64,000 bases of DNA from a bacterium (GCA_016699595.1 CP064982.1:75647-139646); one strand, 5' to 3'. Shown: positions 6,906-27,669, counted from the first letter of the stretch. Translations and numbers: made by a program. The notes: generated by a model from the sequence alone, not told the origin.

Positions 6906-6943
6906 TTCTGCTATCCCTATGTGGTTTATTTTCTATCTGTCAA

Positions 6944-7927
6944 TCAAAGTCCAAGTGCCTTGAGGGCATCTTTCAAGGTTTTTTGATTTGCAATATCTGT
7001 TGATAAAGTTTTTTTAAGCTCTATTATTTTCAATTTAGTCAATAGATACTCTTCGACCCAATCGTGTGTTGATAGTAAATCATTATCATCCAGGAGAGCT
7101 TGTATAGATTTCTCGGTTAATGCACCTGTTTTGTTGTATCCTTTCTTTATTACTTCGCGATAGAGGGAAATTCCACTTCTGTCATGCAAAGACTTTGTCA
7201 GTGCGTCAATTTCACTTCTTACGCCATTTGTTTTCTGCTGTGCTTGATGGTATTCAGTAAGTGTCAAGATTATTTGACTCAGATTGTCTAGAGAACCTTT
7301 TTCTTGGAGAGCTGCATACACTTTTGGCTTTTCTTCTTCCAAAAATTTCCTTAAGTCTTGAGTTATATTGGCCAATTCGTCAACTGATGGATTCACATTC
7401 TGAAGTTCTGGATAATTGTTTTTTAACCATGTAGTAATTACTCTCATCCTGCCACCTGTTTCTTTAGTTTGTAATTGAGCTGGAGTTAATTCTTTTCCAC
7501 GTCTACTTTTAGAAGGTTGCGGACTTGTAGGTTTTGCGACAGGTTCTTGGCTTACTTTATTTGTAGGTTTCTTTGCAGCTTGATTATCATTATTGTTAGT
7601 TTTGTTTAATGGATTCTTTTGAGCTTCATCTAATTCTCTTCTTAAATCAGTATTTTTCGAGCGAAGATATGAGCAATAACCTACAAGGACTAATGCTATA
7701 ACATACCCAGTGGCTGCTATAGCAAACTCCAGGTCACTTTGTTGAAGTCGCACTGTTTCTCGAATGGTTCCATGTAGTTCCAGTGAATGCAATGCAGGTA
7801 GTAGTACTGCTGCTATTTTTTGAAAACTTTGATTTCCATAACCTTGTTTTTCTGTTGTTGGGGGCATCTCTGATCTTGGTATTTCCATAATATTGAATAT
7901 AGCCTTTGAAAATAAATAGTTAAACAA
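6944..7927 (-). CDS. hypothetical membrane/coiled-coil protein
   Basis: One TM helix (AIAATGYVIALVLVGYCSY), a Pro/Lys-rich linker and a long helical C-terminal region; no catalytic motif. Confidence 0.4.
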   Translation of the reverse strand: MFNYLFSKAIFNIMEIPRSEMPPTTEKQGYGNQSFQKIAAVLLPALHSLELHGTIRETVRLQQSDLEFAIAATGYVIALVLVGYCSYLRSKNTDLRRELDEAQKNPLNKTNNNDNQAAKKPTNKVSQEPVAKPTSPQPSKSRRGKELTPAQLQTKETGGRMRVITTWLKNNYPELQNVNPSVDELANITQDLRKFLEEEKPKVYAALQEKGSLDNLSQIILTLTEYHQAQQKTNGVRSEIDALTKSLHDRSGISLYREVIKKGYNKTGALTEKSIQALLDDNDLLSTHDWVEEYLLTKLKIIELKKTLSTDIANQKTLKDALKALGL

Positions 7928-7966
7928 ATATCTAAACTAATTACACCATATTATACCATAAAAAAA

Positions 7967-11083: not shown

Positions 11084-14000
11084 TTGATTAGTCACTGCCA
11101 GATCAAAACCCAGCTTCTCGTTTTCATACTCGCTCTTTTCACGATATTTTTCTTCTTTTCCACGAAAATAGAGGCTAGTAATCCTGTCTGTAGCGATGCC
11201 ATAATGACTTGCAATAAATATTGTGAGTATGGTTCCAAACCTCGTCCAAATACTCCAATATGGAGAGAATGTTGTACTGAGCAGGATGCAGCTATTCCAG
11301 GACGGTGTTCTGCTCCGGGTGAGATCGTCACGAAAATGATTTATTGCAATCAGATACAGTGCGTAGATGCTTTGATCTCGTATTGTCCTATCGGTGAAAG
11401 ACCTGGAGGCCAAGTCTGTGCAATGGTCTGTCCACCCGGTCAGATGGTTGATCCGACCGGAACCACCTGCATCCCGATCACTTCTACTTCATCGAGAACC
11501 AGCTACTCGAGAACCAGCACAACGACAAGAACAAGGACAAGCACGACAACCCGAACGACGACATCTCTGCCTACCGGCTGTGGCAGTGATTGTATCGCTT
11601 GTACAATCGTTGATGTCCCTGGGCATTGGATACGAATAGATCCAAACAGTAATGCGATTTGCAATGCGCAGATCCACCCGGCGACTGATTGTCAATGGAT
11701 AGGTCCAACTTATCGATGTCCACCAAACTCATATCAAGGCAGGTGTGCACCATTGCAGTATTGTGAGCCAGATTATAGTTGTGTACTCGGAAACACATGT
11801 TTTGGGCAAAATCCTACCACGGATAGGATATGTATACCTGATGCTGGCACTGGTTTTGTGCCTGGAAATGAAATCAGAACTTGTGATACTTGTGGACTAG
11901 TTGGGGTTGACGGCATACTACAAAGTCATGTAGATGATGAGTGTATGATAGGTGTGAATTCTGGAGTTGCATGTGAAATCAGGAGGGCAGGTAGCAATAC
12001 AGGTTATTCGGGAAATTCTGACGCGTATGCTTCAGTTCCTATGTGTAGAAATGAAGCAATGGGCCCAAACAATCCAGCTGAGTTTGAAGTTATATGTAGA
12101 TCGGGAAGGGAAGATCTTGATAATGCAAGATGGAACATACAATCACTTACTTCTACTTTGGGACATCCTACGGCTCCTGGATTTCCTGGAGGTTCTGCTA
12201 CTGAAATTCGATTCTCAGTCTTTGTGACTTATCCAAATGATGCGATAGATAGATCAGAAGATACTATAACTATAACTGTTGGTGATGGAGGAAGTGCATT
12301 TGTTTCGGAATGTGGTGTTGGTCCTGGTGGAACTGCTTGCTCAAACAATATGGACTATCAAGGTGAGCATACTGCAACCGTTAGTATCAAACAGCTAGTA
12401 GATACAATTCGACCAGCACTTTCGCGAACATCTGATTTCAAAATCACAAATACACGATGTTTCACAAATCCAGATCCGGTAAGTTGTGATCCAAATACTA
12501 TACTTGGATCAGGACAAGTTAAGTATGACTATAAGGCAGTTGATACATCAGGTATAGTTCAACATACAGGTTTTGCTGGACCAATAAACTTTGATACTAC
12601 GATTCCACTAAATTATCAGTTTCTGGCGGAGTACAATTTTGGAGGATTTGGTTTTGCTGGAGGATTACCTGGTGTTGGTGCAAATAGAAATTTGATCACG
12701 AGTTTCAATTATTATAGTTATTCTGCAGGAAGTGGAATTGATCTAAATAATCCACTTCTGGGTAGCGATGTCATCATAAGGCCAGGATACTTTTCTGGTG
12801 ATAATGATTCGAGATATCATTTCAAGTATATATATAGTGGAGGCAGTGTTTCAAATCCTGTGTTCTATCGAGACAACAATCTGTCTGTAGTCTATACTTT
12901 AAGGCCACCAGATCAACCAATGAGGAGTCCCATAAGTTTCAGATGGGGCAATGGGGAGAGTGGAGTTTTGGATTTCTATGCAGAAAGTTGGAGCGCAGTC
13001 GATATGTTTTGCAATTGGAGAGGAGGTGATAACTCAGTATCTACTTTGTCAGTTGGCAATCCATGGATGAATACGATTGGAGGAAATTTATTTCTAAAAG
13101 GAGCATTCAATCAGTTTGAAAATCACCCTTACGAACTTCCATCGATAAACTTTTCCATTCCAAAAAGTATAGCCGAACGGTATGGTGGATCTCAAAATAC
13201 TGACCTTACTACATATATAGCAAGATCAGAAAATATAGACCTAGGTCAAAATGTGAGTAAAAACGATATGACTTTTGCATCAAATGGTGAAAGTCTTCTT
13301 GATGTATACAAATTCACGAAAGGTAGATACGAATCATTGTATGATTACTTCAAAAATCTGTTTGGAACAGTAAATAGGTATGACAAAAGATCCGAAATAT
13401 ATTGTGGTAATGATTCAAACAAATCACTGTACCTCAAAACGAATCCAAACTACAACAATGTTTGGATATTTAATCAAAGCATAGAAGATTACTTATTGCA
13501 CGGGACTGATGGGAATGGACATCAAACTTGGCTTGATAATGAATCAAACACTTTACTAAGAGATAGTGACTGTATTGGGAATGCAAAAGCTATAGTAGTT
13601 GAAGTAAATGGAAACTTGCAAATGAGAAACCATAATGACGAAAGGAATTCACCTATATATGCAAGTACAAAACCAATCATTTTTCTTGTTGATGGTAACT
13701 TGACTATTGATGAAAATATAGAGAAGAGAAATGGCAATACTATAATGTTTGTAGTGAAAGGTGATGTGATAATCTATGGTGGCAAGAGTAGGTCAATGTT
13801 TGATTCCAAAACAGTGACTCAAGAACCCTCAAGCGATACAATAGATGCAACTTTCTTTGTAGATGGCAAGTTCATCACTATGCCGGATGATGGTGAAAGT
13901 CACAATATAAATGGAGTTGACTATAACGGTCAAACTCAATTTGTGGCAGATTATCCAGATATGTATCCGAATGTAGCAGATGGAGAGACTGTGATATGGG

Positions 14001-14269
14001 ATTCACTGAAGATCAAAGGTTCAGTGATAGTATCGGGACTTTGTCCAAACCAAAGATCAGCTCCTATATACAATGCTGATGGAACTCTGAGACAAAGTGG
14101 TATACAATGTAAGTCGCATTTTGGAAGAGATTTGATATTGGTGCAAAATTTCTTGTACCCAGCTGAAAGCATCATCTATGATCCTGCTTATCTATTTGAC
14201 TTCAAAAACTTACTAAAAGGTGTACCTCCTTTCAATATAAGAGAAACAGGGTATGATCCTTTTTTGTAA
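11084..14269 (+). CDS. giant secreted protein: signal peptide, Cys-rich N-domain, Thr/Ser/Arg-rich linker, large uncharacterised domain
   Basis: 1061 aa; N-terminal signal/TM; more than 20 Cys in the first 250 aa; TSTSSRTSYSRTSTTTRTRTSTTTRTTTS linker; the 5' ~700 nt share the elevated G+C of the upstream gene. Confidence 0.6.
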   Translation: MISHCQIKTQLLVFILALFTIFFFFSTKIEASNPVCSDAIMTCNKYCEYGSKPRPNTPIWRECCTEQDAAIPGRCSAPGEIVTKMIYCNQIQCVDALISYCPIGERPGGQVCAMVCPPGQMVDPTGTTCIPITSTSSRTSYSRTSTTTRTRTSTTTRTTTSLPTGCGSDCIACTIVDVPGHWIRIDPNSNAICNAQIHPATDCQWIGPTYRCPPNSYQGRCAPLQYCEPDYSCVLGNTCFGQNPTTDRICIPDAGTGFVPGNEIRTCDTCGLVGVDGILQSHVDDECMIGVNSGVACEIRRAGSNTGYSGNSDAYASVPMCRNEAMGPNNPAEFEVICRSGREDLDNARWNIQSLTSTLGHPTAPGFPGGSATEIRFSVFVTYPNDAIDRSEDTITITVGDGGSAFVSECGVGPGGTACSNNMDYQGEHTATVSIKQLVDTIRPALSRTSDFKITNTRCFTNPDPVSCDPNTILGSGQVKYDYKAVDTSGIVQHTGFAGPINFDTTIPLNYQFLAEYNFGGFGFAGGLPGVGANRNLITSFNYYSYSAGSGIDLNNPLLGSDVIIRPGYFSGDNDSRYHFKYIYSGGSVSNPVFYRDNNLSVVYTLRPPDQPMRSPISFRWGNGESGVLDFYAESWSAVDMFCNWRGGDNSVSTLSVGNPWMNTIGGNLFLKGAFNQFENHPYELPSINFSIPKSIAERYGGSQNTDLTTYIARSENIDLGQNVSKNDMTFASNGESLLDVYKFTKGRYESLYDYFKNLFGTVNRYDKRSEIYCGNDSNKSLYLKTNPNYNNVWIFNQSIEDYLLHGTDGNGHQTWLDNESNTLLRDSDCIGNAKAIVVEVNGNLQMRNHNDERNSPIYASTKPIIFLVDGNLTIDENIEKRNGNTIMFVVKGDVIIYGGKSRSMFDSKTVTQEPSSDTIDATFFVDGKFITMPDDGESHNINGVDYNGQTQFVADYPDMYPNVADGETVIWDSLKIKGSVIVSGLCPNQRSAPIYNADGTLRQSGIQCKSHFGRDLILVQNFLYPAESIIYDPAYLFDFKNLLKGVPPFNIRETGYDPFL

Positions 14270-14306: not shown

Positions 14307-14334
14307 TTGAGTTAGTATCAAATTGTGCTATAAT
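14307..14334 (+). promoter_or_regulatory. extended -10 promoter of rpmE (TTGAGT -16- TGcTATAAT); ATG 7 nt downstream (leaderless)
   Basis: TTGAGT at 14307-14312, TGc+TATAAT at 14326-14334; the rpmE ATG at 14342 coincides with the expected transcription start. Confidence 0.45.
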
Positions 14335-14341
14335 CATCTTC

Positions 14342-14668
14342 ATGAAAAAAGGCATTCACCCACAATATTTCAAACAAGCAAAGGTTTTTGTAGGAGGTCA
14401 ATTGGTCGGGACTGTAGGATCTACCAAAGAAGAACTTCATTTGGATATACACTCTTCAAATCATCCGTTTTGGACTGGAGCACAAAAAATTATCGATACT
14501 GAAGGTCTTGCTGATAAGTATACTAGAAGAAAAGAAGGTGCGAAAAATGCTGATGAACTGAAAGCAAAAAAAGAGAAATTGAAAGCAAGAATAGAAAGAT
14601 CCAAAGCAAAGTCTGTAGATACCGACACAAAGAAGATAACTTTGAAAGATATGTTGAAAGCAAAATAA
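14342..14668 (+). CDS. rpmE: 50S ribosomal protein L31 (type B, Lys-rich C-terminal extension)
   Basis: MKKGIHPQY...STVGST...LDIHSSNHPFWTG: the canonical L31 N-terminus and HPF(Y/W)TG motif, with no Cys zinc ribbon; extended to 108 aa. Confidence 0.85.
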   Translation: MKKGIHPQYFKQAKVFVGGQLVGTVGSTKEELHLDIHSSNHPFWTGAQKIIDTEGLADKYTRRKEGAKNADELKAKKEKLKARIERSKAKSVDTDTKKITLKDMLKAK

Positions 14669-14858
14669 TTTTTGTTTTTGACTGTCTTCAAAACTTTCAA
14701 ACAGCCTCACAATCGCTTAATTACCATATATTACATAGTATTATATGCGGTATTATATAGACATAACTTTTTCTTGCTATATTTACTAAAGAAGCTTTCG
14801 CAAAAACACGAATTTCACTTTGAGATAAGATATCTAGGTTGTTAGATTCCTTGTTTGT

Positions 14859-14867
14859 TGATATAAT
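14859..14867 (+). promoter_or_regulatory. extended -10 box TGaTATAAT, 7 nt upstream of the uvrA(N) GTG start
   Basis: TG at 14859-14860, TATAAT at 14862-14867; GTG start at 14875. Confidence 0.35.
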
Positions 14868-14874
14868 CACACTC

Positions 14875-16344
14875 GTGCTAGATAAAATCAAAATAAAAGG
14901 GGCCAGAGTTCATAATCTAAAAAATGTTTCTCTAGAATTCCCGAAAAATAAACTGATAGTATTTACCGGCGTTTCAGGTTCTGGTAAATCAAGTTTGGCT
15001 TTTGATACATTGTATGCTGAAGGGCAAAGAAGATATGTTGAATCACTAAGTTCTTATGCAAGACAGTTTCTAGGTATGATGGAAAAGCCAGATGTAGATT
15101 ATATCGAAGGACTTTCTCCAGCTATTTCGATAGATCAAAAATCAACAAGTCACAATCCAAGATCGACAGTAGGAACTATAACTGAGATTTATGATTATCT
15201 GAGATTACTCTTTGCAAGAGTAGGGACAGCCTATGATCCAACTACTGAAGCAAAATTGGAATCACAAACAGTCCAAGAAATAGTCGAAAGAATCATAAAT
15301 ATTCCCTCGCTTGTTAGCTTCACACAGGAAGTGCAAGAAAAAGGATCAAAAGTTGATACAAGTGAATTAGGCAAATCGAATGTTTCTGGGGTGAAGATTA
15401 TGATTCTCTCTCCGATTGTCAAAAATAGAAAAGGAACATATGAAGAGCTTTTTCAAAAACTTCTTTCGCAAGGATTCACACGAGTTCGAGTAAATGGAAA
15501 TCTGAAAAGTCTCGAAGAAGAAATCAAGCTTGATCGCTACAAAACTCACAATATTGACTTAGTTATAGATAGATTGGTTCTAAATACAACAGGAACTGCT
15601 GCTGAAAAAGAAGACGGTGAAGCTCTAGGTACTTTGAAAAGTGAACAAAGGAAAAGAATCACTGATTCCGTAGAACTCGCACTCTCAAAGGGGGACGGAC
15701 AACTAGCTGTAAACATTATTGACACAGATCAAGATATCGTGATGTCAGAATCAATGGTTATGTCAGATGGTTCAGCTTTTCCAAAGCTTGAGCCAAACTT
15801 GTTTTCATTCAATTCTCCAGTTGGTGCTTGTCCTAGTTGCAACGGTCTTGGCTTCATAATGGAAATAGATCCAAACTTGGTTTATAATCCAAGACTTACT
15901 ATTTCCGAAGGTTCGATTTATCCGTGGAGTCGAAGTTGGGACATGAATGGAGGTTGGTACCGAACGATGCTTGAACAAGTAGCAAAGAAACATAAAGTTG
16001 ATTTGAAAACACCGATGGGAAAATTGGCAAAAGAGAAGCTATACTTGATTTTGTATGGAACTGGAGATATGACTTATAAAGTGACAATGGAGTCAGGGCA
16101 TAGCTTCAACGGTAAGTATGAGGGTGTGATACCAAATATTTCTCGTCGTTTCAAAGAAACTCAAAGTGACTACATAAGAGATGAACTTAAGGAATATTTT
16201 CGTGATGTAGATTGTCACGAATGTGAAGGGAAGAGATTGAATAAATTTGCCTTATCAGTCAAGGTAGGAGAAAAAAATATTTGGGAAGTCAGTAATATGA
16301 ATATTGCAGAGGCATTGAGCTGGATAGATACAATAGCAAGCTAG
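14875..16344 (+). CDS. uvrA: UvrA N-terminal fragment (Walker A of NBD-I, UvrB-binding and insertion domains, Zn fingers); terminates at TAG
   Basis: A GTG start gives (M)[107 protein letters not shown], near-identical in pattern to the E. coli UvrA N-terminus. CxxC pairs are present (CPSCNG, CHECEG). It ends ...IAEALSWIDTIAS* at the position corresponding to E. coli residue ~470. Confidence 0.9.
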   Translation: MLDKIKIKGARVHNLKNVSLEFPKNKLIVFTGVSGSGKSSLAFDTLYAEGQRRYVESLSSYARQFLGMMEKPDVDYIEGLSPAISIDQKSTSHNPRSTVGTITEIYDYLRLLFARVGTAYDPTTEAKLESQTVQEIVERIINIPSLVSFTQEVQEKGSKVDTSELGKSNVSGVKIMILSPIVKNRKGTYEELFQKLLSQGFTRVRVNGNLKSLEEEIKLDRYKTHNIDLVIDRLVLNTTGTAAEKEDGEALGTLKSEQRKRITDSVELALSKGDGQLAVNIIDTDQDIVMSESMVMSDGSAFPKLEPNLFSFNSPVGACPSCNGLGFIMEIDPNLVYNPRLTISEGSIYPWSRSWDMNGGWYRTMLEQVAKKHKVDLKTPMGKLAKEKLYLILYGTGDMTYKVTMESGHSFNGKYEGVIPNISRRFKETQSDYIRDELKEYFRDVDCHECEGKRLNKFALSVKVGEKNIWEVSNMNIAEALSWIDTIAS

Positions 16345-16422
16345 TTATTCTCAACGAATGTAACTATAGGGTATTTTGAAATTTTGCAAGACAAGTAAAT
16401 TAGCTTATATACAATTCATATA

Positions 16423-17718
16423 ATGAAGAAACATAAAAAAAGTATTTCAACAAACAACAAAATAGTTTTTTTCATAACACTATTGGTAGTTTTTCTAGAT
16501 GTGTTCGGATTTACGCTAGTTATACCTATACTTGCAAGTATGATTCAGTCACCTTATGGAGTTTTTTACAATGTAGTTGATCCAGCTGATAGGAATTTAC
16601 TCTACGGCTTTCTGCTAGCAAGTTACGCACTTGCTTCGTTTTTATCTTCTCCAGTTATCGGGCAATTGTCTGATAAATATGGAAGGCGACGACTTCTGGC
16701 TATTAGTGTAGCTGGTTCATTTATTTCTAGGATATTTTTTCTTTTAGGTATTCTTACTCTGAATTTACCATTACTTTTTGTATCGAGAGTTCTCGATGGT
16801 ATAACTGGAGGTAACATAACAGTTGCAAATAGTGCAATTGCAGATATCTCATCAAAGGAAAACAAAGCAAGAAACTTTGGCTATGTAGGTATGATAATGG
16901 GGTTGGGTCTTCTTTTGGGACCTTTTGTAAGTTCAAGGCTGTCGGATATACAAATTGGTGGAATGGTAGGAGTCGCAACACCTTTGATGCTTGGTATAGT
17001 ACTTTGCTTCATAGCTTTGATCTTGATTGTATTCAAGTTTCGTGAAACAAACCAATATATACAGAGTGATATGAAGATAAATAAATTGAGTGCTCTTATG
17101 ACAATAAAAAAGGCGTTTAGAGCTAAAGGAATAAAAACTATATTGATAACAAGCTTTCTTTTCACTTTTGGTTTCAATTTCTTTGTAAGTTTCATAAATG
17201 TGTACTTGATTGGACTGTATCAATTCTCACTTCTTGATATGGGAAATATTCTAGTTTATATAGGAGTTTGGGTTGCTGTGGGTCAAGGTCTGCTAGTAAA
17301 GCCACTGTCAAAAAAGTTTAGCACCAGAACTATAGTGATTTTCGGACTCATCCTTACAGGATTTGGATTGATGACTCCCATCATTCCTTCTATACTACCA
17401 TCTGTTGGACAGCATGATAAACTTATATACTTACTAGTTCCCCTTTTTGCGGCATCTTATGGATTTACTTCACCAAATATCATAGCACTTGTTTCAAATG
17501 CAGGAGAAAAAGATGAACAAGGAGAAGTCTTGGGTATAAATACCTCGATCCAAAATCTTGCACAAGCAATACCGCCAGTCTTGGCAGCTTATTCTTCAAT
17601 TATTTCAAATACACTGCCTTTGATAATTGGCGGATCATCTATGATTTTTGGAGCTTTGATACTTTCTACATTTTATGAAAACCAAAAAACAGAGAAAATC
17701 TTCAAAGTGAAAAAATGA
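16423..17718 (+). CDS. MFS transporter (DHA1/TetA-like), copy 1
   Basis: 12-TM profile; MFS motif A GQLSDKYGRRRLLAI; 431 aa; ends in a TGA stop. Paralogous to the ORF at 18626. Confidence 0.85.
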   Translation: MKKHKKSISTNNKIVFFITLLVVFLDVFGFTLVIPILASMIQSPYGVFYNVVDPADRNLLYGFLLASYALASFLSSPVIGQLSDKYGRRRLLAISVAGSFISRIFFLLGILTLNLPLLFVSRVLDGITGGNITVANSAIADISSKENKARNFGYVGMIMGLGLLLGPFVSSRLSDIQIGGMVGVATPLMLGIVLCFIALILIVFKFRETNQYIQSDMKINKLSALMTIKKAFRAKGIKTILITSFLFTFGFNFFVSFINVYLIGLYQFSLLDMGNILVYIGVWVAVGQGLLVKPLSKKFSTRTIVIFGLILTGFGLMTPIIPSILPSVGQHDKLIYLLVPLFAASYGFTSPNIIALVSNAGEKDEQGEVLGINTSIQNLAQAIPPVLAAYSSIISNTLPLIIGGSSMIFGALILSTFYENQKTEKIFKVKK

Positions 17719-17752
17719 AGTATTTGCCTAAGTTCAAATTTAAGTTTACTAT

Positions 17753-18139
17753 ATGACAATTTTTATAAAAATCATCAACAAAGAAATACCAGCAAGAATT
17801 GTAGATGAAAACGAAAGTTTCATAGTCTTTCTTGCAAAAGATCAAGTAAACCTTGGACATAGTCTACTAGTTCCAAAAGTTGAAGTTGATCAAATCATAG
17901 ATTTAGAAGATAGTTTGACTTCTGACATGTTTGTATATGCAAAGAAAGTTGCAAAAGCTATAAAACTTGCTACCAATTCTGATCGAATCATTTATACAAT
18001 TCATGGTTTTGAAGTTCCACACCTTCATTTGCATTTAGTACCAGCATTCTTGGATCAAGACAATGATTCTATAAAACAATTTTCAGAACAAGAATTAGAT
18101 GAAGTACAAAAGAAGATAAGAGAAATTTTAAATAATTAA
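17753..18139 (+). CDS. HIT-family (histidine triad, Hint-like) hydrolase
   Basis: FLAKDQVNLGHSLLVPK ... HLHLHLVP: a canonical histidine triad; 128 aa. Confidence 0.85.
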   Translation: MTIFIKIINKEIPARIVDENESFIVFLAKDQVNLGHSLLVPKVEVDQIIDLEDSLTSDMFVYAKKVAKAIKLATNSDRIIYTIHGFEVPHLHLHLVPAFLDQDNDSIKQFSEQELDEVQKKIREILNN

Positions 18140-18143
18140 ATTT

Positions 18144-18611
18144 ATGGCTGTAATTTATGAAACAGAAAATTTTATAGTTAAAACTTATACTACACCCGAA
18201 GTTCCGCATAATGATAGGCTTGATGGAGGCCATATAATTATTTCACCAAAAATTGAAGTAGAATCAAGACAAGATTTAACCCCAGCACAATTAGTTGAAT
18301 TTATTTGGTTATCAAGTATAGTTGGTGAAGCAATGACAAAAGTTTTAACTGAAAAAGGAATTGAAATAGGAAGAATAAATTATCAAGATAACGGGAATTA
18401 TAATCATAAATTTCACCTACATTTATATGGCAGAGCAAAATCTGCAACCAAACAGCCTTATGGAAAACCTTTTGTGATTTATACAGAAGATTTTGAAAAT
18501 TGGAAAGATAATAAACCACTAACCCAAGAAGATATAGCTAAAATTAAATCTAAAATAGAAGAATTATCAACTTTGAAAAAATATCAAAAACAATTATTTA
18601 AATTTAATTAA
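18144..18611 (+). CDS. HIT-like protein (divergent histidine triad HKFHLHLY)
   Basis: GGHIIISPK ... NHKFHLHLYGR; 155 aa; the start codon is 4 nt after the preceding HIT gene. Confidence 0.55.
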   Translation: MAVIYETENFIVKTYTTPEVPHNDRLDGGHIIISPKIEVESRQDLTPAQLVEFIWLSSIVGEAMTKVLTEKGIEIGRINYQDNGNYNHKFHLHLYGRAKSATKQPYGKPFVIYTEDFENWKDNKPLTQEDIAKIKSKIEELSTLKKYQKQLFKFN

Positions 18612-18625
18612 CCTTTTTTAATATT

Positions 18626-19879
18626 ATGAAAAAATCTCCATTATTTACAATTTTTCTAACAGTCTTTATAGACTTGATTGGTTTTTCAATAGCAATTCCT
18701 ATATTGTCAAGCTTGATACAATCACCATTTGGCAAGTTTTTTCCACTTATCGAACCTAGTCAAAGGAATATTGTTTATGGATTTTTGATTGCGAGCTACC
18801 CAATAGCTGCTTTTATCGCAACACCTATAATCGGAGAATTGTCAGATAAGTATGGCAGAAAACCACTTTTAGCTATAAGTTTGATTGGGAGTCTTTTTGC
18901 ACGGTCTCTTTTTATACTAGGAATTGTAAATGCAAATTTACCGTTACTATTTATCGCAAGATCACTTGATGGTATCACTGGTGGAAATATATCTGTTGCA
19001 CAAAGCGCAATAGCTGATGTGTCAACCCCTGAAACCAAAGCCAAAAACTTTGGGATAATTGGCATGGCATTTGGACTCGGTTTTGTCTTGGGTCCATATA
19101 TTGGTGCAAGACTGGCAGATTATCAAATCCTTGGTTTAGACAAAATCATCACACCACTTCTTTTTGCAACAGTTCTTTGTTTAATAAATATACTTTCGGT
19201 ATTTTTTGTATTTCCAGAAACATTGAAAGAAAAGTCCAAGAGTGTAAAAGTTAGCTTTTTTAGTGCATTTAGAAATGTCAAGAAAGCATTTTCGATCAAG
19301 AGTTTAACAGTGATTTTACTAGTTAGCTTTTTGTTTAATTTTGGGTTTAACTTTTTCACTAGCTTTTCGAACTATTACTTCATACAAACTTTCAATTTCA
19401 CTTTTAGTAATATCGGAGATTTGTTTGCATATATAGGAATTTGGATTGCTATAACTCAAGGTGCAATAGTAAGGCCTCTTGTCAAAAAGTATCCAGCAAG
19501 CAAACTTGTCAAATTTGCATTACCATTGACTTCACTTGGATTACTACTGCTTTTGTATCCAAAAGTATTTCCAAACCTAGCAGGAAATTCAAATTATCTT
19601 TACTTAGTCCTTCCTGTCTTTGCTATATTCAACGGAATAGTAACTCCAAATTTGATAGGTTTGGTTTCAAACTCAGCAGATCCAAAGGAGCAGGGCGAAG
19701 TTTTGGGAATCAATGCAAGCATCGGAAGTCTTGCTCAAGCAATTCCTCCAATTTTGGCAGCATACATAGCAAATATTAGCAACGAGCTTCCTCTTATAGT
19801 TGGAGCTGGAGTGATTTTTGTGGCTTTTCTAATTTTTGCAACTAGTTATAAAGAGCAGAAGTTTAAAATTGAAGAATGA
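18626..19879 (+). CDS. MFS transporter (DHA1/TetA-like), copy 2
   Basis: 12 TM; motif A GELSDKYGRKPLLAI; similar to copy 1 along its whole length (for example LDGITGGNI.VA.SAIADVS, EQGEVLGIN.SI..LAQAIPP). Confidence 0.85.
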   Translation: MKKSPLFTIFLTVFIDLIGFSIAIPILSSLIQSPFGKFFPLIEPSQRNIVYGFLIASYPIAAFIATPIIGELSDKYGRKPLLAISLIGSLFARSLFILGIVNANLPLLFIARSLDGITGGNISVAQSAIADVSTPETKAKNFGIIGMAFGLGFVLGPYIGARLADYQILGLDKIITPLLFATVLCLINILSVFFVFPETLKEKSKSVKVSFFSAFRNVKKAFSIKSLTVILLVSFLFNFGFNFFTSFSNYYFIQTFNFTFSNIGDLFAYIGIWIAITQGAIVRPLVKKYPASKLVKFALPLTSLGLLLLLYPKVFPNLAGNSNYLYLVLPVFAIFNGIVTPNLIGLVSNSADPKEQGEVLGINASIGSLAQAIPPILAAYIANISNELPLIVGAGVIFVAFLIFATSYKEQKFKIEE

Positions 19880-19919
19880 TTCCAGGTTATAGATACCAGC
19901 AAATCATCAATCTCAAACA

Positions 19920-21542
19920 ATGAGTTTAATGGCAAATTTAAGCTCTCAACAAAAAACAATTGCCAAAGAAGTTTTGAAAGAACTCAAAGCCCGACTTGGA
20001 TTTCTAAATTCAGTTGGCTTAAGTTACCTAACTTTATCAAGAACTGCTAGAACGCTTTCTGGTGGTGAAGCTCAAAGAATCCGACTTGCTTCACAAATTG
20101 GTTCAGGTTTGACTGGAGTTTTGTACATACTTGATGAACCAAGTATCGGACTTCATCAAAAAGATAATGAAAGGTTACTCGAAACTTTACTTCATCTTCG
20201 AGACATAGGAAATTCAGTTGTAGTTGTCGAACATGATGAAGATACTATCAAACATGCAGATTGGATAGTTGATGTTGGACCAAAAGCCGGTGAACATGGA
20301 GGAGAAATTATTTATAATGGAGAACTGGATGATTTTGACAAAGTAGAAAATTCTCTAACATCTGACTATATTTCAGGTAGAAAAAGTATAAATAAAGATA
20401 ATATCTTAGCTAAAGTTGCGACATTCGATAAAGATTTGACTGATCTTGAAAATGAAGCTGGGACAAGACAATTCATGACAAAAAAAGTTGCAAAGAAAGC
20501 TCCGGAATTAGCTTCACTCAAAAAAGCGGATGTTTTGAAAAGGCAAAAGGATTATTCTATAAAAGTAATCGGAGCAAGTGAGAATAATTTGAAAAATATC
20601 GATGTAGAATTTCCACTTGGCAAATTTATCTCAGTTACTGGAGTTTCTGGATCTGGTAAGTCAACTTTAGTTAATGATATTTTGGCTAAGTCTTTGATGA
20701 AAGATATTTATGATAGTAAAGAAATTCCTGGTAAGCACGAAGCAATAACTGGATTCGAATATATAGACAAAGTTGTAGTTATAGACCAAAGCCCAATTGG
20801 TAGAACTCCAAGATCAAATCCAGCAACTTATACTGGGGTTTTCAACTATATTCGAGATATTTTCGCAGAAACTAAAGAAGCAAAAATCCGAGGTTATGGT
20901 CCAGGTAGATTTAGTTTCAATACAAAAGGTGGTAGATGTGAAAAATGCAAGGGTGATGGAGTTTTGAAAATTGAAATGCAATTTTTGCCTGATGTTTTTG
21001 TAGAATGTGAAGCATGTCATGGTAAAAGATATAATGAAGATACTTTGCAGATTGATTATAAAGGCAAAAATATTTCGCAAATTCTTGAGTTGACAGTTGA
21101 AGATTCAGTTAAATTTTTTGAAAAGATTCCTTGGGCAGAAAATAAACTCAAAACTCTTGAGAAAGTTGGACTTGGTTATATCAGACTCGGTCAATCAGCA
21201 ACTACACTTTCTGGAGGTGAAGCTCAAAGGGTGAAACTTGCAACTGAACTTAGTAAAAGGCAAACTGGAAAGACTGTTTATATACTTGATGAACCTACAA
21301 CCGGACTTCATTTTGCAGATGTTGAGAACTTGCTTCTTGTACTTCATTCGCTTGTCGCAAAAGGAAATACTGTAATTGTAATTGAGCATAACTTGGATGT
21401 AGTGAAAACTTCAGACTGGATAATTGACTTAGGACCAGAAGGTGGTGATAAAGGTGGTCAAGTAATAGTTGCAGGAAGTGTAGATAATGTGAAAAGATGT
21501 GAAAAAAGCTATACTGGAGAGTGGTTGAGAAAGATCAGATGA
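19920..21542 (+). CDS. uvrA: UvrA C-terminal fragment (signature/Walker B of NBD-I plus complete NBD-II) with its own ATG
   Basis: [108 protein letters not shown] resumes exactly where the N-fragment stops relative to E. coli UvrA (…[57 protein letters not shown]…). It continues through the second Walker [11 protein letters not shown], a CxxC…CxxC pair and the second signature [12 protein letters not shown]. Confidence 0.9.
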
Positions 21543-21773
21543 CAATAGTTTTACAGTTTGGAACTCAATCTCCAAACTTGATTTGTCCAGAATTATTATT
21601 ATATATTGTCATATTTTGTTCAAATTCTTCTTTGGTAATTTCATTCGAAACTTTTGAATATGGAACTTTTATAATTTTTCACTTTCAGTTCAATTCTGTT
21701 TTTTCTAATTATTTAGACAATATTCCTCTCAAGTCTCCGCCTGTAATTGATGAAAATGCTCATTAGTAAAAAC

Positions 21774-24113
21774 CTAAAATTCTAAATTTTCCCAATCGCG
21801 CTCGTTTTCATAAACATAATTCTCTTTTTTGTTTATTCTCCAACTAGGATGTTTAAAATCGGCAATTCCTCCCATAATTTCAAAATCATAACTTGCTTTT
21901 TTCGCTTTAATCCATTCTTGAAGTGTTTTATTTTTGTCTGCTGTTTCTTGTGACATTGCAGTACTTCCTGATTTTGTATCAAGCAAATAAACTTTGTTTT
22001 CTTTTTTTATAATAAAGTCTGGATAAAAAAGCCGGTTTTTCTTTTCTTGTGTGTCGTAGTATTCAATAGCAAAAACATTTCTTCCACTATCTTCTTGCTT
22101 ATGCCACCAATCAATATCTTGTGATTCTAAAAATTCAATAAATTTAGTTTCATTATCTTTTCCTTTGTAAACTTTTTTAATATAAAATTTTTCATAAACA
22201 TTTTTTGATGCTTTTAACTCTTCAAAATCTTCTGTATAACTCATTTCTTGCTCTGGAATTAGAGTATCAAAAATATCTTTTTCTTCTTTTTCTTTTATTT
22301 CAATATTATAAGTTGTTCTAAAATCAATAAGTGCTTTGTGAATAGCTTTTTTTAACTCGCTATTTGGATTTAAAAGTTCATTTACAATTATTTTATACCA
22401 AACACTTCTATCTAAACCAAACCTTGTACTAAACCAAACATTTAAAGCCTGTTTTAATTGCCCCCATGATCTTGATGGATTGTATTTTGCTTCGTCAAGT
22501 TGCTGCTTTTTTAGTTCTTCAAAACAAAGTAAGTTATAAAGTCTTTCAATATCTAATTGTGAAAAATGATAATCTAAGTTTTTACCTTTATCTTTAATTT
22601 CTTTTACAAAATTATCAAAACTTTCAATTTCTGCATCAACGATTATTTGATTATTTACGTTTTCTTGATAAAGATTTATTTTCCCCTTTACTGCTGTAAT
22701 ATTTTCAGAAAAGTCTATAATTAAATTATCTTTGGTTCCAAAATATTCATCTAAAGTCTTTTTAAAAGATTTTTGCCATAAAGGAGGAGGTGTCAAAGTA
22801 TTAAAATCTGTTCTGTGATGAAAAATTGTTTCAAGTCTAATTTGTAAAACATCTTTTTTAAGTTTTGTATAATAAATCGGAGATTTGTTTCCGTTTTCTA
22901 CTTCTTTTATATCTTTAATATGACTTTTATTATAATTTGTGTAAATATATGCTTTGTTTAGTTCTTCTTTTTCATAATGATGGCCTTCAGGCATTCTTTT
23001 TATTCTCCCTATTATTTGAGTATGAAACGAAGGACTTCCAATTTCTCTAAACATAACCAAAACATCAGCTCTCGGACAATCCCAACCAGTCGCAGGAGCT
23101 ACTTTGAAAATCATGAAATTAACTTCATTATTATTTTTTTCTATTAACTCAAGATTTTTCTTTTCGTTTGATAACCAAATGGCAATTTCATTTTCTTTTA
23201 CTCCTTTTTGTTTCAAAAACGACAAAACCATATCTTTTTTGTTTGTTGCTACATCTTCTTTTTCTTTTTCATCACTTGGAAGTTGTATAAGAACAAGAGG
23301 ATTGATTCCAAGTTCTAAATCGTCATAATATTTTTTTAGTTCTAATCTTTTTTTGAAAGCAAGTTCAAGCATTATTTCATCTTCACTCAGTTCTTTATTT
23401 TCAAGTTTTATAATCTCTTCTTCTGTTTGGATAATGATTTTTTCTTTTATCAGCCCACTTTTGATCACATCTTCTTCCAAAACTTCTACAAAACCTGCTT
23501 TCTTTTGATTTATTTCACTAATATTTGGCAAGTCTTTTGGGGTTGCTGTAATTTTTAAAATAATTCTTGGATCTATAAGTTCAATAACTTCATTTGCAAG
23601 TGTTGTATTCGTTTCCGTATGTGCTTCGTCAATTATCAAAACAAGATCTCTTTCTTTTTTTGTTTTTTTAATAAATTCATCAAAAACTCCAAATTCTCCT
23701 TCTGTGTGTTCGTTTGGTTTTTTTAATTTTTTTGATTCTTTATCTGTTCCTTTTATTTTTGCCCAGTTGATAAAGAAAATATTGTTTTTATAAAGTTTTC
23801 CTTCGCTTAAATTATTTATATCTTTCAAATTCATATCAGTACCTTCATTGTAGTAATGATAGAGTTTATTTTTTGATTGAGTATAAGACTCATCTCCACC
23901 AAAAGAGATCCATAAATATGCCTTATCTTCATGAAATTGGTAATTATCATCAAGACATCTCAAAAATTCTGCCATCATTATGGTTTTCCCTGCTCCAGTT
24001 GGAGCTTTAAAAATAAGAGGGATTTTATAGTTTCCCGTTTTCCATAAATCCAAAAAAGTAAGACTTAATTGATTTATTGCCGATTCTTGAAAATCTTTTA
24101 AATGTATAGACAT
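21774..24113 (-). CDS. res: Type III restriction enzyme Res subunit (SF2 helicase + PD-(D/E)xK nuclease)
   Basis: Walker A KAPTGAGKT and DEAH box LIIDEAH; C-terminal YPDFII...VYLLDTKSG nuclease-like motif; lies immediately downstream of the mod gene on the same strand. Confidence 0.8.
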   Translation of the reverse strand: MSIHLKDFQESAINQLSLTFLDLWKTGNYKIPLIFKAPTGAGKTIMMAEFLRCLDDNYQFHEDKAYLWISFGGDESYTQSKNKLYHYYNEGTDMNLKDINNLSEGKLYKNNIFFINWAKIKGTDKESKKLKKPNEHTEGEFGVFDEFIKKTKKERDLVLIIDEAHTETNTTLANEVIELIDPRIILKITATPKDLPNISEINQKKAGFVEVLEEDVIKSGLIKEKIIIQTEEEIIKLENKELSEDEIMLELAFKKRLELKKYYDDLELGINPLVLIQLPSDEKEKEDVATNKKDMVLSFLKQKGVKENEIAIWLSNEKKNLELIEKNNNEVNFMIFKVAPATGWDCPRADVLVMFREIGSPSFHTQIIGRIKRMPEGHHYEKEELNKAYIYTNYNKSHIKDIKEVENGNKSPIYYTKLKKDVLQIRLETIFHHRTDFNTLTPPPLWQKSFKKTLDEYFGTKDNLIIDFSENITAVKGKINLYQENVNNQIIVDAEIESFDNFVKEIKDKGKNLDYHFSQLDIERLYNLLCFEELKKQQLDEAKYNPSRSWGQLKQALNVWFSTRFGLDRSVWYKIIVNELLNPNSELKKAIHKALIDFRTTYNIEIKEKEEKDIFDTLIPEQEMSYTEDFEELKASKNVYEKFYIKKVYKGKDNETKFIEFLESQDIDWWHKQEDSGRNVFAIEYYDTQEKKNRLFYPDFIIKKENKVYLLDTKSGSTAMSQETADKNKTLQEWIKAKKASYDFEIMGGIADFKHPSWRINKKENYVYENERDWENLEF

Positions 24114-24119
24114 AGTGTT

Positions 24120-26255
24120 TTATTTAATATTAAAAGTGTTTATCATATTTATTATATGATCATAAAAATCTTGCAAATCTTTTAAATCAAAACCAGTATA
24201 ATCTCCATGACTTGCATTATTTCCGATAACGATAAAAGTTTTGTTTTTCTCCCAAAATATTTTATCAAAAATATTTATTCTCTTAATTTCATCATTAAGA
24301 TTAGATAGTTTTTTACCTTCAAATTCTATGGAATTTTTAAAACATATTTCATGAGTGATGTGTTCCATACATATTCGCAGAACTCTGGCTCCATCTTCTT
24401 TATTTGAATTATCTATATGCTTTTTAGCCCTTATTATCTCATTATTTAAATTAAACCTTCTTACACTTTCTCTTAAAGTTAAATTGATTTCTTTATAAAT
24501 TTCTAATATTGGTTCTGGTATATCTTCCAAAACAATATTTTTACCAAGATAATTAAATATTTTTTTATCAATTCTTGAATAACTAAAAACATACAAGACT
24601 GTTTTTGTCTTACCTATTTTTTTTACTAAACTTTCAAATTCATCCATATTTTCACGAAAATATATAGCTGTTTTTCTGCTTTTATCTTTGTTTTCAAAAA
24701 TTTGATACCACTGGTTTGTTTCTACTTCTTCAAAAGTATTTTCTTTAATAGCTATCATTTGTCCTGCTTTTTCTGTAAGTTTATTTCTTTGCTGATCATT
24801 AATATTATCAATTCTTTCTACTGGTATTAAATCTGTTTTGAAATATTGAAGATTACCATTTAGACCCTCAATAAATTCTCCATTTCCATTTTTATTATAA
24901 CCTTTGATAACTTTTTCTAACCTTGGATATGTTACTCTTTGGCAAATTCCAAATTTTTCTTTGTCTTCATTTGGATTTTTTTCTGCAAGTTCACTTCCTA
25001 CTCCGTTTAAATCATTATTAGTACATAAAATAAATCTACGATTCCCATTATCTTCTTTGTTCAATTGTAAAATCGCTTGTCCTGTTGTGCCTGACCCAGC
25101 AAAAAAATCTAAGATTGTAGAATTTTTATTTTCATAAGTAATACTCTCTATAAGATATTTAATTAATTTTGTTGGTTTGGGATAATCCATAGGAGAAATT
25201 CCATCAAACAAATTTTTTAATTCATTTGTAGCATCTGTATTTGTCGCTCCATCATTTATATATTTGCTATATAAACTAATTGGTGCTTTAATTCCAGCTT
25301 CTCTATTTGATATTTCTAATGTCGCTCTTAATGTTTTTATGCTTTTTATATATATAATTCCATTATCACTACTAATTGCTTCATTTATTTTTTCTTGAGA
25401 CCACTTAAATCTTCCTTCTAAAATTATGTCTTCATTTGCAATTCCATTTTCAATAATTAAATCATTTTTGAGATAAACTTTTAGTTCTCCATTCCCATAA
25501 ATTCCAGATTTTAATTCTCCATTATATTTAGAGCCTATTATTGTTTTTTCTTTTTTAAATAATCTTACAGCTATAGAATTTGATTTATTTAACATTTCTA
25601 TATGCTTATTAGGATCAGTCATCCCTCCTTTAAATTCTAATTTATTATTTGAATTTTTATAAACTAACACATATTCTGTTACATTTATTACTTCTCTAGT
25701 CAAAAAAGATGGTTGTGTTTTCTTGTGCCAAATAATGGGATTTAAAAAATTATTCTCTCCAAACACAGCATCACACAACAATTTTAACTGAGCAAACTCA
25801 TTGTCATCAATACTAATAAAAATAACTCCTTTTTCTGTTAGTAAATTTCTAGCAAGTCTTAATCTTTTATCCATAAAATTTAGCCACTTGCTATGCCTAT
25901 ATCCGTCTTCTTTGTCTATATATTTATCATTATAAACAAAATCTTTATTTCCAGTATTATACGGAGGATCAATATAAATTACATCAATCTTCCCTTTGTG
26001 AGTATAATTGAGACAAGTAAGAGCATGATAATTATCTCCTTCTATCAAAATATTATCATCACTATCATCAGTTTTGATTTCTTTTTCTTTTATTCTCTGT
26101 AAAATCGGAATATTATTTTCACAATCCAAAACAACTTGTTCTGGTTCTTTTTCACTATCCCAAACAAGCCCATACTTTTTAGTTTTTAGCTCTTTTTCTT
26201 GTTTTTCAACAAGTTTTAAGAGTTCTTCTTTGGATAAGTCTTGATATTTAGACAT
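24120..26255 (-). CDS. mod: Type III R-M Mod subunit (beta-class N6-adenine DNA methyltransferase)
   Basis: Motif IV DVIYIDPPYNTG precedes motif I ILDFFAGSGTTGQA (the beta-class order typical of Type III Mod); 711 aa; 6-nt gap to res. Confidence 0.85.
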   Translation of the reverse strand: MSKYQDLSKEELLKLVEKQEKELKTKKYGLVWDSEKEPEQVVLDCENNIPILQRIKEKEIKTDDSDDNILIEGDNYHALTCLNYTHKGKIDVIYIDPPYNTGNKDFVYNDKYIDKEDGYRHSKWLNFMDKRLRLARNLLTEKGVIFISIDDNEFAQLKLLCDAVFGENNFLNPIIWHKKTQPSFLTREVINVTEYVLVYKNSNNKLEFKGGMTDPNKHIEMLNKSNSIAVRLFKKEKTIIGSKYNGELKSGIYGNGELKVYLKNDLIIENGIANEDIILEGRFKWSQEKINEAISSDNGIIYIKSIKTLRATLEISNREAGIKAPISLYSKYINDGATNTDATNELKNLFDGISPMDYPKPTKLIKYLIESITYENKNSTILDFFAGSGTTGQAILQLNKEDNGNRRFILCTNNDLNGVGSELAEKNPNEDKEKFGICQRVTYPRLEKVIKGYNKNGNGEFIEGLNGNLQYFKTDLIPVERIDNINDQQRNKLTEKAGQMIAIKENTFEEVETNQWYQIFENKDKSRKTAIYFRENMDEFESLVKKIGKTKTVLYVFSYSRIDKKIFNYLGKNIVLEDIPEPILEIYKEINLTLRESVRRFNLNNEIIRAKKHIDNSNKEDGARVLRICMEHITHEICFKNSIEFEGKKLSNLNDEIKRINIFDKIFWEKNKTFIVIGNNASHGDYTGFDLKDLQDFYDHIINMINTFNIK

Positions 26256-26370
26256 GAATTTTCTTTTGTAAAATCTTTTATTATATTTTTATAGATAAGT
26301 CGATACATAAGTATAATATAATTCTATTATTTTCAGTAAAATATTGCAAACAGAGATCGATCATGCATTT

Positions 26371-26379
26371 TGTTATAAT
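26371..26379 (+). promoter_or_regulatory. extended -10 box TGtTATAAT, 6 nt upstream of the umuC ATG
   Basis: TG at 26371-26372, TATAAT at 26374-26379; ATG at 26386. Confidence 0.35.
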
Positions 26380-26385
26380 TTCCCC

Positions 26386-27669
26386 ATGTTCGCCCTAATC
26401 GACTGCAACAATTTCTACGCAAGTTGTGAACGGAAACGAAACCCAAGTCTGATCGATAAACCAATAGTTGTAGCTTCAGGTTTGCAAGGTGCAGTTATTG
26501 CTAGATCAAATGAAGCAAAAAAACTTGGTATCAAAACTGGTGATCCAATTTTCAAAATAAAAGATTTGATTGAGAAAAATCATGTTGCAGTCATTCCTAC
26601 TGATATTCCATATTATGTCAAAATTTCAAGATCAGTTATGAAATGTTTGAATGAATTTTCTCCTGTTGTTGAGATTTACTCAATTGATGAAGCTTTTGTA
26701 ACTATTTCAAATTATGAAAAAGATTATGAAACATTTAGTAAAAAGATAATTGATAAAATATGGGATCAAACAGGAATTCCAGTTTCTATAGGAATTGCAA
26801 AAACTAAGGTTTTATGTAAAATTGCTAGTAAATTAGCCAAAAAAGGCTACAAGTTTTTTGTTTTAGACAAAGATATACTTGGAGATGTTGAGTTTAGTAG
26901 TATTTTGAAGAACTTTCCAATTGAAGATATTTGGGGAGTTGGTTATAAGTTAAACTTAAAACTGCAAGTAAACTATATCTATAATGCAGAAGATTTGAGG
27001 CAAATGGATCTCAAACTGGCTCAGAAAATTGGAAATATTAATCTTGTTCGAATTGTTCAAGAACTGAATGAAATTAGTGTAATTGAAATAAATGAAAAGT
27101 TTGAAGCGAGAAAGATGATTTTGTTTTCCAGATCATTTACAACTCCGATTTTTGAATATGAAGTGCTTGAAAGTAAATTAGCAAAGTTTGTAAGTAGAGC
27201 TTCAGAAAAACTTCGCTCTCAAAATTCACTTTGTGGCAAAATTTCAGTTTACCTCTCAACTTCTCGATTTGAAAAAGCTGAAAAATATAGTATGTATGAA
27301 GAATTGAAAATCATTCCAACCGACTTTACTCCAGAACTTATCAAACACTGCAAAGTTTTACTTCAAAGAGCATATAAACCAAATACAAGATTCAAAAAAA
27401 TGGGAGTAGTTTTGACAAATTTTACTGACAGAAGTTTTGATCAAGTTGAACTTTTTGATAATGAGCAAACTTTGAAATTGAAAAACAAAAAGAGCAATAT
27501 GATGAAAGCGGTTGACAAGATAAACCAAAAATATGGTAAAAATATAGTCAAGAGCAGTGCTGAAGTTGAGAACTACAAGTCAAATGAAGCGAACTGGACT
27601 TCGCAAGATCCGGTAAATAGTTATGGAGATGACAATGCAACAATATTTGATGCGAAGAGGTTTATTTGA
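26386..27669 (+). CDS. umuC: Y-family translesion DNA polymerase, UmuC-like
   Basis: MFALIDCNNFYASCERKRNPSL is almost superimposable on E. coli UmuC MFALCDVNAFYASCETVFRPDL; also VVASGLQGAVIARSNEAKKLGIKTGDP, SIDEAFV. Start placed at ATG 26386 rather than the upstream TTG of the track ORF. Confidence 0.8.
   Translation: MFALIDCNNFYASCERKRNPSLIDKPIVVASGLQGAVIARSNEAKKLGIKTGDPIFKIKDLIEKNHVAVIPTDIPYYVKISRSVMKCLNEFSPVVEIYSIDEAFVTISNYEKDYETFSKKIIDKIWDQTGIPVSIGIAKTKVLCKIASKLAKKGYKFFVLDKDILGDVEFSSILKNFPIEDIWGVGYKLNLKLQVNYIYNAEDLRQMDLKLAQKIGNINLVRIVQELNEISVIEINEKFEARKMILFSRSFTTPIFEYEVLESKLAKFVSRASEKLRSQNSLCGKISVYLSTSRFEKAEKYSMYEELKIIPTDFTPELIKHCKVLLQRAYKPNTRFKKMGVVLTNFTDRSFDQVELFDNEQTLKLKNKKSNMMKAVDKINQKYGKNIVKSSAEVENYKSNEANWTSQDPVNSYGDDNATIFDAKRFI

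Follow-up and report, generated by a model that had tools for sequence, protein, structure and literature searches.

Canonical class I UvrA proteins, such as those of E. coli, Geobacillus stearothermophilus (2R6F/3UWX), M. tuberculosis (3ZQJ) and C. thermocellum (9GXK), are typically single chains of about 940 amino acids. In a 64,000-nucleotide stretch of bacterial DNA (GCA_016699595.1 CP064982.1:75647-139646; hereafter the window), we find the same complete domain set, in the same order, encoded by two open reading frames (ORFs) of 489 and 540 amino acids. These are referred to here as the N-half and the C-half, and they lie 3.6 kb apart with four intact same-strand genes between them. The split UvrA is 48-51% identical to the canonical class I structures and has all catalytic motifs intact; it differs from them in consisting of two polypeptides, in the absence of the Zn1 ligands and in a predicted disordered insertion of about 40 amino acids in the linker. 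On the comparisons given below we consider it probable, at roughly 80%, that the two ORFs represent a stable, selected fission of canonical class I UvrA and that their products form an obligate two-chain protein assembling non-covalently. Full-text literature searches found no published naturally split uvrA.

The architecture of UvrA is plastic in other ways too. Class II UvrA (D. radiodurans UvrA2, 2VF7; Ecm16, 7SH1) has no UvrB-binding domain and double-length UvrA (PRK00635, about 1800 amino acids) duplicates the whole protein, both as single chains, whereas the split UvrA is merely divided. Many UvrA-family proteins of about 1800-2300 amino acids (P0361-P0443) are such tandem double UvrAs, the opposite extreme to the split form.

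Three further systems invite comparison. The ATP-binding cassette (ABC) heads of Rad50/SMC type can be rebuilt by combining an N-terminal with a C-terminal polypeptide. In a similar manner, Walker A and the signature/Walker B of split UvrA are on separate segments and the nucleotide-binding domain would form by association; the Rad50/SMC segments are normally one chain via a coiled coil, whereas the separation in UvrA is genetic, natural and conserved, and concerns a tandem-ABC protein of nucleotide excision repair (NER). Natural split genes are known from reduced genomes (Nanoarchaeum/DPANN), and here again an essential-type protein is encoded by two unlinked or loosely linked ORFs, conserved in a clade of an ultra-small-genome lineage; unlike those cases, split UvrA occurs in Bacteria, in the candidate phyla radiation (CPR). 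Split-intein proteins such as cyanobacterial DnaE are two separately encoded halves of one enzyme, as is split UvrA; unlike DnaE, the latter has no intein sequence, and its halves therefore cannot be ligated.

Position of the break and content of the two halves

The N-half alignment covers SEQRES residues 21-466 of Geobacillus UvrA (2r6f), ending at 463-466, and the C-half aligns from its residue 6 onward to C. thermocellum UvrA (9gxk) from position 469. Because the two alignments abut, the break is clean, with no residue lost or duplicated. The ORF table and these structure alignments agree with the initial annotation, which had described uvrA as two independently initiated ORFs with four same-strand genes between them, the C-half resuming exactly where the N-half stops. 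In the multiple alignment the cut falls between residues ~444 and ~445 of Geobacillus UvrA, in a variable surface loop 35 residues ahead of R480 (numbering of PMC6486640). R480 is found five residues ahead of signature motif I, which is part of the distal site, and K37 and E512 serve as Walker A and Walker B residue, respectively, in the proximal site, which ATP-binding domain I forms with signature II (PMC6486640). For C. thermocellum UvrA, residues 90-120 and 423-506 are given as the signature domain I core (PMC12796330). As the published domain limits enclose it (PMC12796330, PMC6486640), the cut is inside signature domain I, and signature domain I and ATP-binding domain I therefore each need both chains.

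The N-half carries Walker A-I, most of signature domain I, the UvrB-binding domain (PF17760, 1.7e-29), the insertion (DNA-binding) domain (PF17755, 3.9e-28) and Zn2. Signature domain I ends on the C-half, which starts with its last helices and LSGGEAQR, followed by Walker B-I and H-loop I, the inter-module linker with its clade-specific insertion, the complete ABC module II and the Zn3 hairpin. Both tandem ABC modules possess the full motif set (Walker A, Q-loop, signature, Walker B and H-loop), spread over the two ORFs, and the multiple alignment confirms the earlier assignment of Walker A to the N-half and of signature, Walker B and module II to the C-half. It had also been stated that both frames are intact with their ATPase motifs kept, which holds, and that all CxxC zinc modules are kept, which does not: the Zn2 (CPSC...CHEC) and Zn3 ligands are intact, whereas none of the four Zn1 ligands is present, YDP.. 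and VMSDG.. replacing CPxC/CxxC. Against PRK00349 (cutoff 1147 bits) the halves score 529 and 850 bits, each below the cutoff and above it as a plain sum; against TIGR00630 the C-half alone scores 798, exceeding 729.8, and the N-half 499.5.

The frame of the N-half is open from TTG 14839, and TTG 14839 and GTG 14875 are both candidate starts. The fit of MLDKIKIKGARVHNL to the N-terminus of Bst UvrA favours GTG 14875.

The concatenated halves were modelled with AlphaFold2 (AF2) using a 63-sequence alignment, yielding a mean predicted local distance difference test (pLDDT) score of 83.1 and a predicted template modelling score (pTM) of 0.75; a model made without an alignment (pLDDT 33) was discarded. 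Full-length UvrA structures align with the model at template modelling (TM) scores of 0.81-0.87. A helix at 477-489 stops at the final residue of the N-half, a lower-pLDDT loop occupies 490-497 and a second helix follows at 498-520, while the linker insertion is predicted to be disordered. The contiguous UvrAs of L007 (1216-4233) and L090 carry insertions of 25-30 amino acids at exactly the loop that is cut in the split clade, so the loop tolerates length change.

Relatives sharing the break and selection on both halves

Each half was searched against 5.8 billion protein clusters, among which a few short relatives outrank every contiguous UvrA in closeness: P0004 (533 amino acids, 72%) and P0005 (545 amino acids, 68%) for the C-half, and P0121 (456 amino acids, 67%) and P0122 (475 amino acids, 62%) for the N-half. 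The contigs of these relatives derive from Logan (SRR20005815, SRR20005812, SRR26425193) and JGI (3300056850), samples separate from that of the window. The N-halves of the window, of L001/L002 (two independent Logan assemblies) and of L006 (Logan) all stop at one alignment column, with stop codons that vary by lineage (TAG, TGA-TAA, TAA), and the C-halves of the window, of L001/L002 and of L004 (JGI) all begin at that same column.

The arrangement of the halves varies among these lineages. L001/L002 have them 4 kb from each other on opposite strands, the C-half on the plus strand and the N-half as the final gene of a minus-strand operon; a MacB-type ABC transporter of this operon is situated between the halves. 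L004 has a C-half without an N-half on 13.7 kb, and L006 an N-half without a C-half on 10.4 kb, flanked by Band_7 and DnaK. The operon of L001 (4001-7870, minus strand) encodes the MacB-type ABC efflux system (FtsX permease and ATPase), two unknown proteins and the N-half, whose start overlaps the end of the gene upstream. Efflux genes adjoin uvrA halves in two different arrangements, that of the window and that of L001.

Neighbour-joining (NJ) trees of 41 taxa for the C-half and 47 taxa for the N-half recover the split sequences as monophyletic in 100/100 bootstraps each, and the nearest neighbours of both clades are contiguous UvrAs of Dojkabacteria type. Three split lineages share two derived characters, namely the loss of all four Zn1 ligands and the linker insertion. 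One ancient fission is the parsimonious reading of the shared break, the two clades and the derived characters. The best named matches of DnaB are to Candidatus Dojkabacteria (49-53%), one relative has an 87%-identical DnaB (P0242), and the clade appears to be a small Dojkabacteria-like (CPR/Patescibacteria) group.

These relatives bear on the objection that a chimeric join or misassembly placed 3.6 kb inside a contiguous uvrA. The source of the window is a metagenome-assembled genome, and one apparent split in a relative (L005, with ORFs of 462 and 561 amino acids) proved to be a 10-N scaffold gap at 3139-3148 and was rejected. At the window's break, proper stop and start codons are found, GC content is even across the intervening block, there are no runs of N near the junctions and no junction repeats, and independent assemblies from other samples have the same stop and start positions. 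The probability of an assembly artefact is, in our estimate, close to nil.

Wider searches added little to the clade. An exhaustive HMMER search with the N-half against 1.84 billion representatives, the results of which were dominated by double-length UvrA fusions, found P0122 as the only true stand-alone N-half of the clade and no convincing others. The scan of GTDB genomes via the N-half, for which the universal motif MMEKPDVD was used, returned 80 unrelated contiguous uvrA loci and no split relative. A metagenome scan with a clade-specific C-half pattern gave no match in a collection that lacks the L004 sample, though the pattern matches L004 itself, and the corresponding scan with an N-half pattern found only the distant contiguous uvrA genes L087-L089.

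Several other candidates were rejected as splits. L090 (1562-4453), of Dojkabacteria type, has a TGA inside LR*DLGN and a frameshifted 3' end and is a pseudogene or low-quality sequence. P0002 (L003 5369-7927) and P0003 are duplicated UvrA C-terminal halves and were taken as chimeras; in L003 P0002, which is preceded by an overlapping 463-amino-acid N-half ORF and uvrB, probably reflects assembly chimerism or collapsed strain variants. P0444 is cut by a contig end, P0503 is on a 1.9-kb contig with a junk tail, and P0461, P0482 and P0489 are frameshifted or truncated.

Pairwise divergence was estimated by the Nei-Gojobori method. The N-halves are 0.65-0.72 identical in amino acids, with non-synonymous divergence (dN) of 0.23-0.28 and a proportion of synonymous differences (pS) of 0.73-0.755, which is saturated. 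The C-halves are 0.70-0.74 identical, with dN of 0.22-0.26, synonymous divergence (dS) of about 1.6-1.7 and dN/dS of 0.13-0.16; dS being saturated, these dN/dS figures are upper-bound style estimates. A set of 109 contiguous UvrAs has 309 columns conserved to 97% or more, and of these the split lineages retain 102-105 of 109 in the N part and 190-195 of 200 in the C part (94-97%), and the window UvrA retains 298 of the 309. This retention is indistinguishable from that of the contiguous low-GC relatives L087, L088 and L007, and no rate acceleration was seen, the mean distance to the references being no larger than that of contiguous relatives.

Compared by segment, residues 1-88 of the N-half, which form the Walker A segment, are its best-conserved part (86-91% identity; proportion of non-synonymous differences, pN, 0.06-0.13), and its Walker B counterpart on the C-half has 70-79% identity. 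The UvrB-binding and insertion domains are both under purifying selection and the linker insertion is the sole relaxed stretch. That the Walker A segment is the best conserved though its partner is on the C-half implies that the two still form one domain.

A recent disruption, in which an insertion inactivated uvrA and left the two ORFs as decaying remnants, is difficult to reconcile with these values. In its favour, the C-half is identical to QQR93640.1, which is named merely "ATP-binding cassette domain-containing protein" at NCBI, the protein collection has no entry for the N-half, as might be expected if the public annotation flagged it as a pseudogene, and all Zn1 ligands are lost. Nevertheless, lineages that are no more than 65-74% identical have the same break; their synonymous sites are saturated, their dN is low and internal stops are absent. 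Near-invariant positions are retained as in contiguous UvrAs without acceleration, and the apparent uvrA pseudogene of L090 looks unlike either half, having an in-frame TGA in a conserved motif and a scrambled 3' end. We regard a decaying pseudogene as very unlikely. The initial annotation had left a choice between a functional two-piece UvrA and a very recent disruption, both being preferred to an old pseudogene. The saturated synonymous divergence between lineages sharing the break rejects the recent disruption, the lack of internal stops and the retained near-invariant positions speak against an old pseudogene as well, and the functional two-piece UvrA is supported by at least three divergent lineages with the same break, by purifying selection and by the differing arrangements. 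It had also proposed looking for relatives split at the same residue and for additional inactivating lesions in homologues; the former exist, N-half stops and C-half starts sharing one alignment column, and neither internal stops nor frameshifts were found in either half of any split lineage.

Proposed assembly and expression of the halves

In the mechanism that we propose, the N and C products would associate non-covalently and rebuild one UvrA protomer, which would then dimerise as usual. ATP-binding domain I would be formed from both chains, with Walker A and the K37 equivalent supplied by the N-half and Walker B, the E512 equivalent and the H-loop supplied by the C-half, and the proximal ATPase site would be a composite of both chains. 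The distal site has its catalytic motifs entirely on the C-half, and the N-half carries the UvrB-binding and DNA-binding insertion domains. Physical assembly of the two halves and their activity in NER are what we infer from the sequences.

The halves might alternatively be under selection and uncoupled, for example if the C-half were an autonomous DNA-binding ABC ATPase and the N-half a UvrB-binding protein or adaptor. Consistent with this, Walker A-II, Walker B-II and signature I, which make up the distal site, and the damage-sensing Zn3 hairpin are all on the C-half (PMC6486640), and in L004/L006 the two halves are not linked, and in L001 their transcription is divergent. ATP-binding domain I, however, is complete in neither half; the N-half is best conserved in its orphan Walker A segment, Walker B-I and H-loop I are intact on the C-half, and the K37A substitution in the proximal Walker A nearly abolishes the ATPase activity of Geobacillus UvrA (PMC6486640). 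Uncoupled functions therefore seem unlikely to us.

Rejoining of the two pieces could take the form of excision or inversion of the intervening DNA, RNA trans-splicing or a split intein, for which developmentally excised elements and split-intein DnaE are precedents elsewhere. In this locus there are no surplus terminal residues that could be intein halves, since the N-half ends in ..ALSWIDTIAS* and remains colinear with contiguous UvrA through the C-half start. The block has no flanking repeats, and no recombinase was found within it or in its vicinity; an Rfam scan of the window returned only a tRNA, with no intron or ribozyme, and relatives have their halves on opposite strands or different contigs. 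Rejoining is thus extremely improbable. Since no rejoining device was found, non-covalent assembly is the sole mechanism left.

The six genes of the cluster and the associated signals are listed in Table 1.

Table 1. Genes and candidate expression signals of the uvrA cluster, in window coordinates.
Feature	Coordinates	Strand	Match or remark
Promoter-like site TTGTTA-17-TATAAT with TG, before the N-half	14839..14867	+	Consensus match only
uvrA N-half, 489 aa, stop TAG	14875..16344	+	2r6f match E=1e-144; PF17760, PF17755; PRK00349 529 bits
Spacer between N-half and MFS1, 78 nt, terminator-free	16345..16422	+	
MFS1, DHA1/Tet(A-C)-like major-facilitator efflux-type transporter, 431 aa	16423..17718	+	Pfam MFS_1 1.8e-42; Tet family 166 bits, below the 475 cutoff
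HIT1, histidine-triad (HinT-like) nucleotide hydrolase, 128 aa	17753..18139	+	Pfam, NCBIfam
HIT2, divergent HIT-domain protein, 155 aa	18144..18611	+	Pfam HIT 3.3e-06
MFS2, second DHA1/Tet-like MFS transporter, 417 aa	18626..19879	+	Pfam, NCBIfam
uvrA C-half, 540 aa, ATG start	19920..21542	+	9gxk match E=3e-223; PRK00349 850 bits; TIGR00630 798
Terminator-like hairpin directly after the C-half, only one at a gene end in the cluster	21555..21578	+	Weak T-tail; consensus match only

MFS1 and MFS2 are 49.6% identical to each other, and HIT2 is 28% identical to HIT1. The -10 box of the N-half (TGaTATAAT) ends 7 nucleotides ahead of GTG 14875, which suggests that its mRNA is leaderless. A promoter-like site in the spacer (AAGACA-16-TACAAT) likewise has a -10 box that ends 7 nucleotides ahead of the MFS1 ATG, and the start of the L31 gene (14342) shows the same geometry. 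Across the window, TANNNT ends 4-10 nucleotides before the start in 26 of 54 ORFs, as compared with 18% of random positions, and motifs like the Shine-Dalgarno (SD) sequence precede just 4 of the 54; leaderless mRNAs thus seem common in this genome, examples being 14334-14341 before L31, 14862-14874 before the N-half and 16410-16422 before MFS1. The promoter count does not exceed the shuffled expectation, and the promoter and terminator sites are to be read as hints only. The six genes form a tight same-strand cluster with no terminator-like hairpins between them, so that the halves can be co-transcribed, and co-transcription in the window genome is plausible on this layout. In relatives the halves are expressed from other arrangements, and the C-half of L004 has its own TGcTAAAAT box 8 nucleotides upstream.

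Several observations weigh against a working two-chain UvrA. Neither uvrB nor uvrC was found among the scanned ORFs of the 64-kb window, and there is no recognisable promoter or SD motif upstream of the window's C-half, though SD motifs are scarce in this gene set anyway. The clade is small, comprising the window genome and three or four metagenomic lineages, of which L004 and L006 may be the same organism. To these are added the saturation of dS and the missing Zn1 ligands, a loss common to the whole split clade and seen also in the contiguous UvrA of L007.

The genes around the cluster are of varied kinds. Upstream, 11084-14269 (plus strand) encodes a 1061-amino-acid Cys-rich protein with a Thr/Ser/Arg repeat tract (…TSTSSRTSYSRTSTTTRTRTSTTTRTTTS…), an N-terminal hydrophobic segment and no Pfam match, which is probably a secreted or surface protein; it is followed at 14342-14668 (plus strand) by ribosomal protein L31 with a Lys/Glu-rich C-terminal extension of about 45 amino acids past the Pfam domain. 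Just downstream of the C-half, 21774-26255 (minus strand) and 26344-27669 (plus strand) encode a 779-amino-acid ResIII-helicase-like protein and a 711-amino-acid N6/N4 DNA methylase, which together look like a type III-like restriction-modification pair, and then a DinB/Pol IV gene.

Probable origin of the fission and its meaning

The fission would have arisen once, in the common ancestor of the small Dojkabacteria-like clade, the probable trigger being the arrival, in the insertion-tolerant loop, of either a block of efflux and HIT genes or a stop combined with a restart. L004 has an orthologue of HIT1 (54% identity) and one of MFS2 (58-81%) upstream of its C-half, the latter directly, and in the C-half NJ tree it branches outside the pair formed by the window and L001; the synteny of HIT, MFS2 and C-half therefore probably predates the clade. 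A Cass2 (effector-binding) gene takes the place of HIT2 in L004, and its MFS2 orthologue (6792-8044) is scattered over three reading frames, reflecting either a pseudogene or sequencing errors.

Insertion of a cassette into the loop fits the order N-half, cassette, C-half in the window together with the synteny in L004, and is plausible though unproven. A stop/restart mutation followed by later insertions would yield the same picture. The two junctions show no insertion scar, with no flanking, direct or inverted repeats, and the block has no hallmarks of a mobile element: its four genes are MFS and HIT only, it contains no recombinase or transposase and it does not contrast in composition. The nearest recombinase, a tyrosine recombinase with Phage_integrase and SAM-like N domains (50117-51262, plus strand), is 30 kb off and unrelated. 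The earlier description of uvrA as split by insertion agrees with the block from HIT to MFS2 being shared with L004, whereas the insertion event, for want of a signature, stays conjectural.

A more far-reaching proposal may be stated as well. On this view the protein would be an obligate hetero-oligomer, (N+C)2, the first such UvrA found in nature, and its proximal ATPase site would be completed in trans; it would have arisen when the drug-efflux/HIT block landed in a permissive loop, and would have been kept as a co-regulated "genotoxin defence" operon or for tuning the damage sensor through subunit stoichiometry. We hold this extended version to be doubtful.

The locus is also an annotation trap. 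The public record labels the C-half as a generic ABC protein and apparently omits the N-half, and pathway reconstructions would therefore score the lineage as lacking UvrA. For protein engineering, the break offers a natural, evolution-tested split point in UvrA that is useful for split-protein designs and for working out how the distal site and the Zn3 hairpin communicate with the proximal site, the UvrB-binding domain and the insertion domain.

Genes split less often than they fuse, and the split usually falls between domains. In this UvrA the cut crosses an ABC nucleotide-binding module, and yet it has survived until synonymous sites were saturated. Split UvrA is a new architectural variant of a well-known protein, so far confined to a small CPR clade, and it indicates that CPR bacteria, like DPANN archaea, can keep core proteins as split genes.

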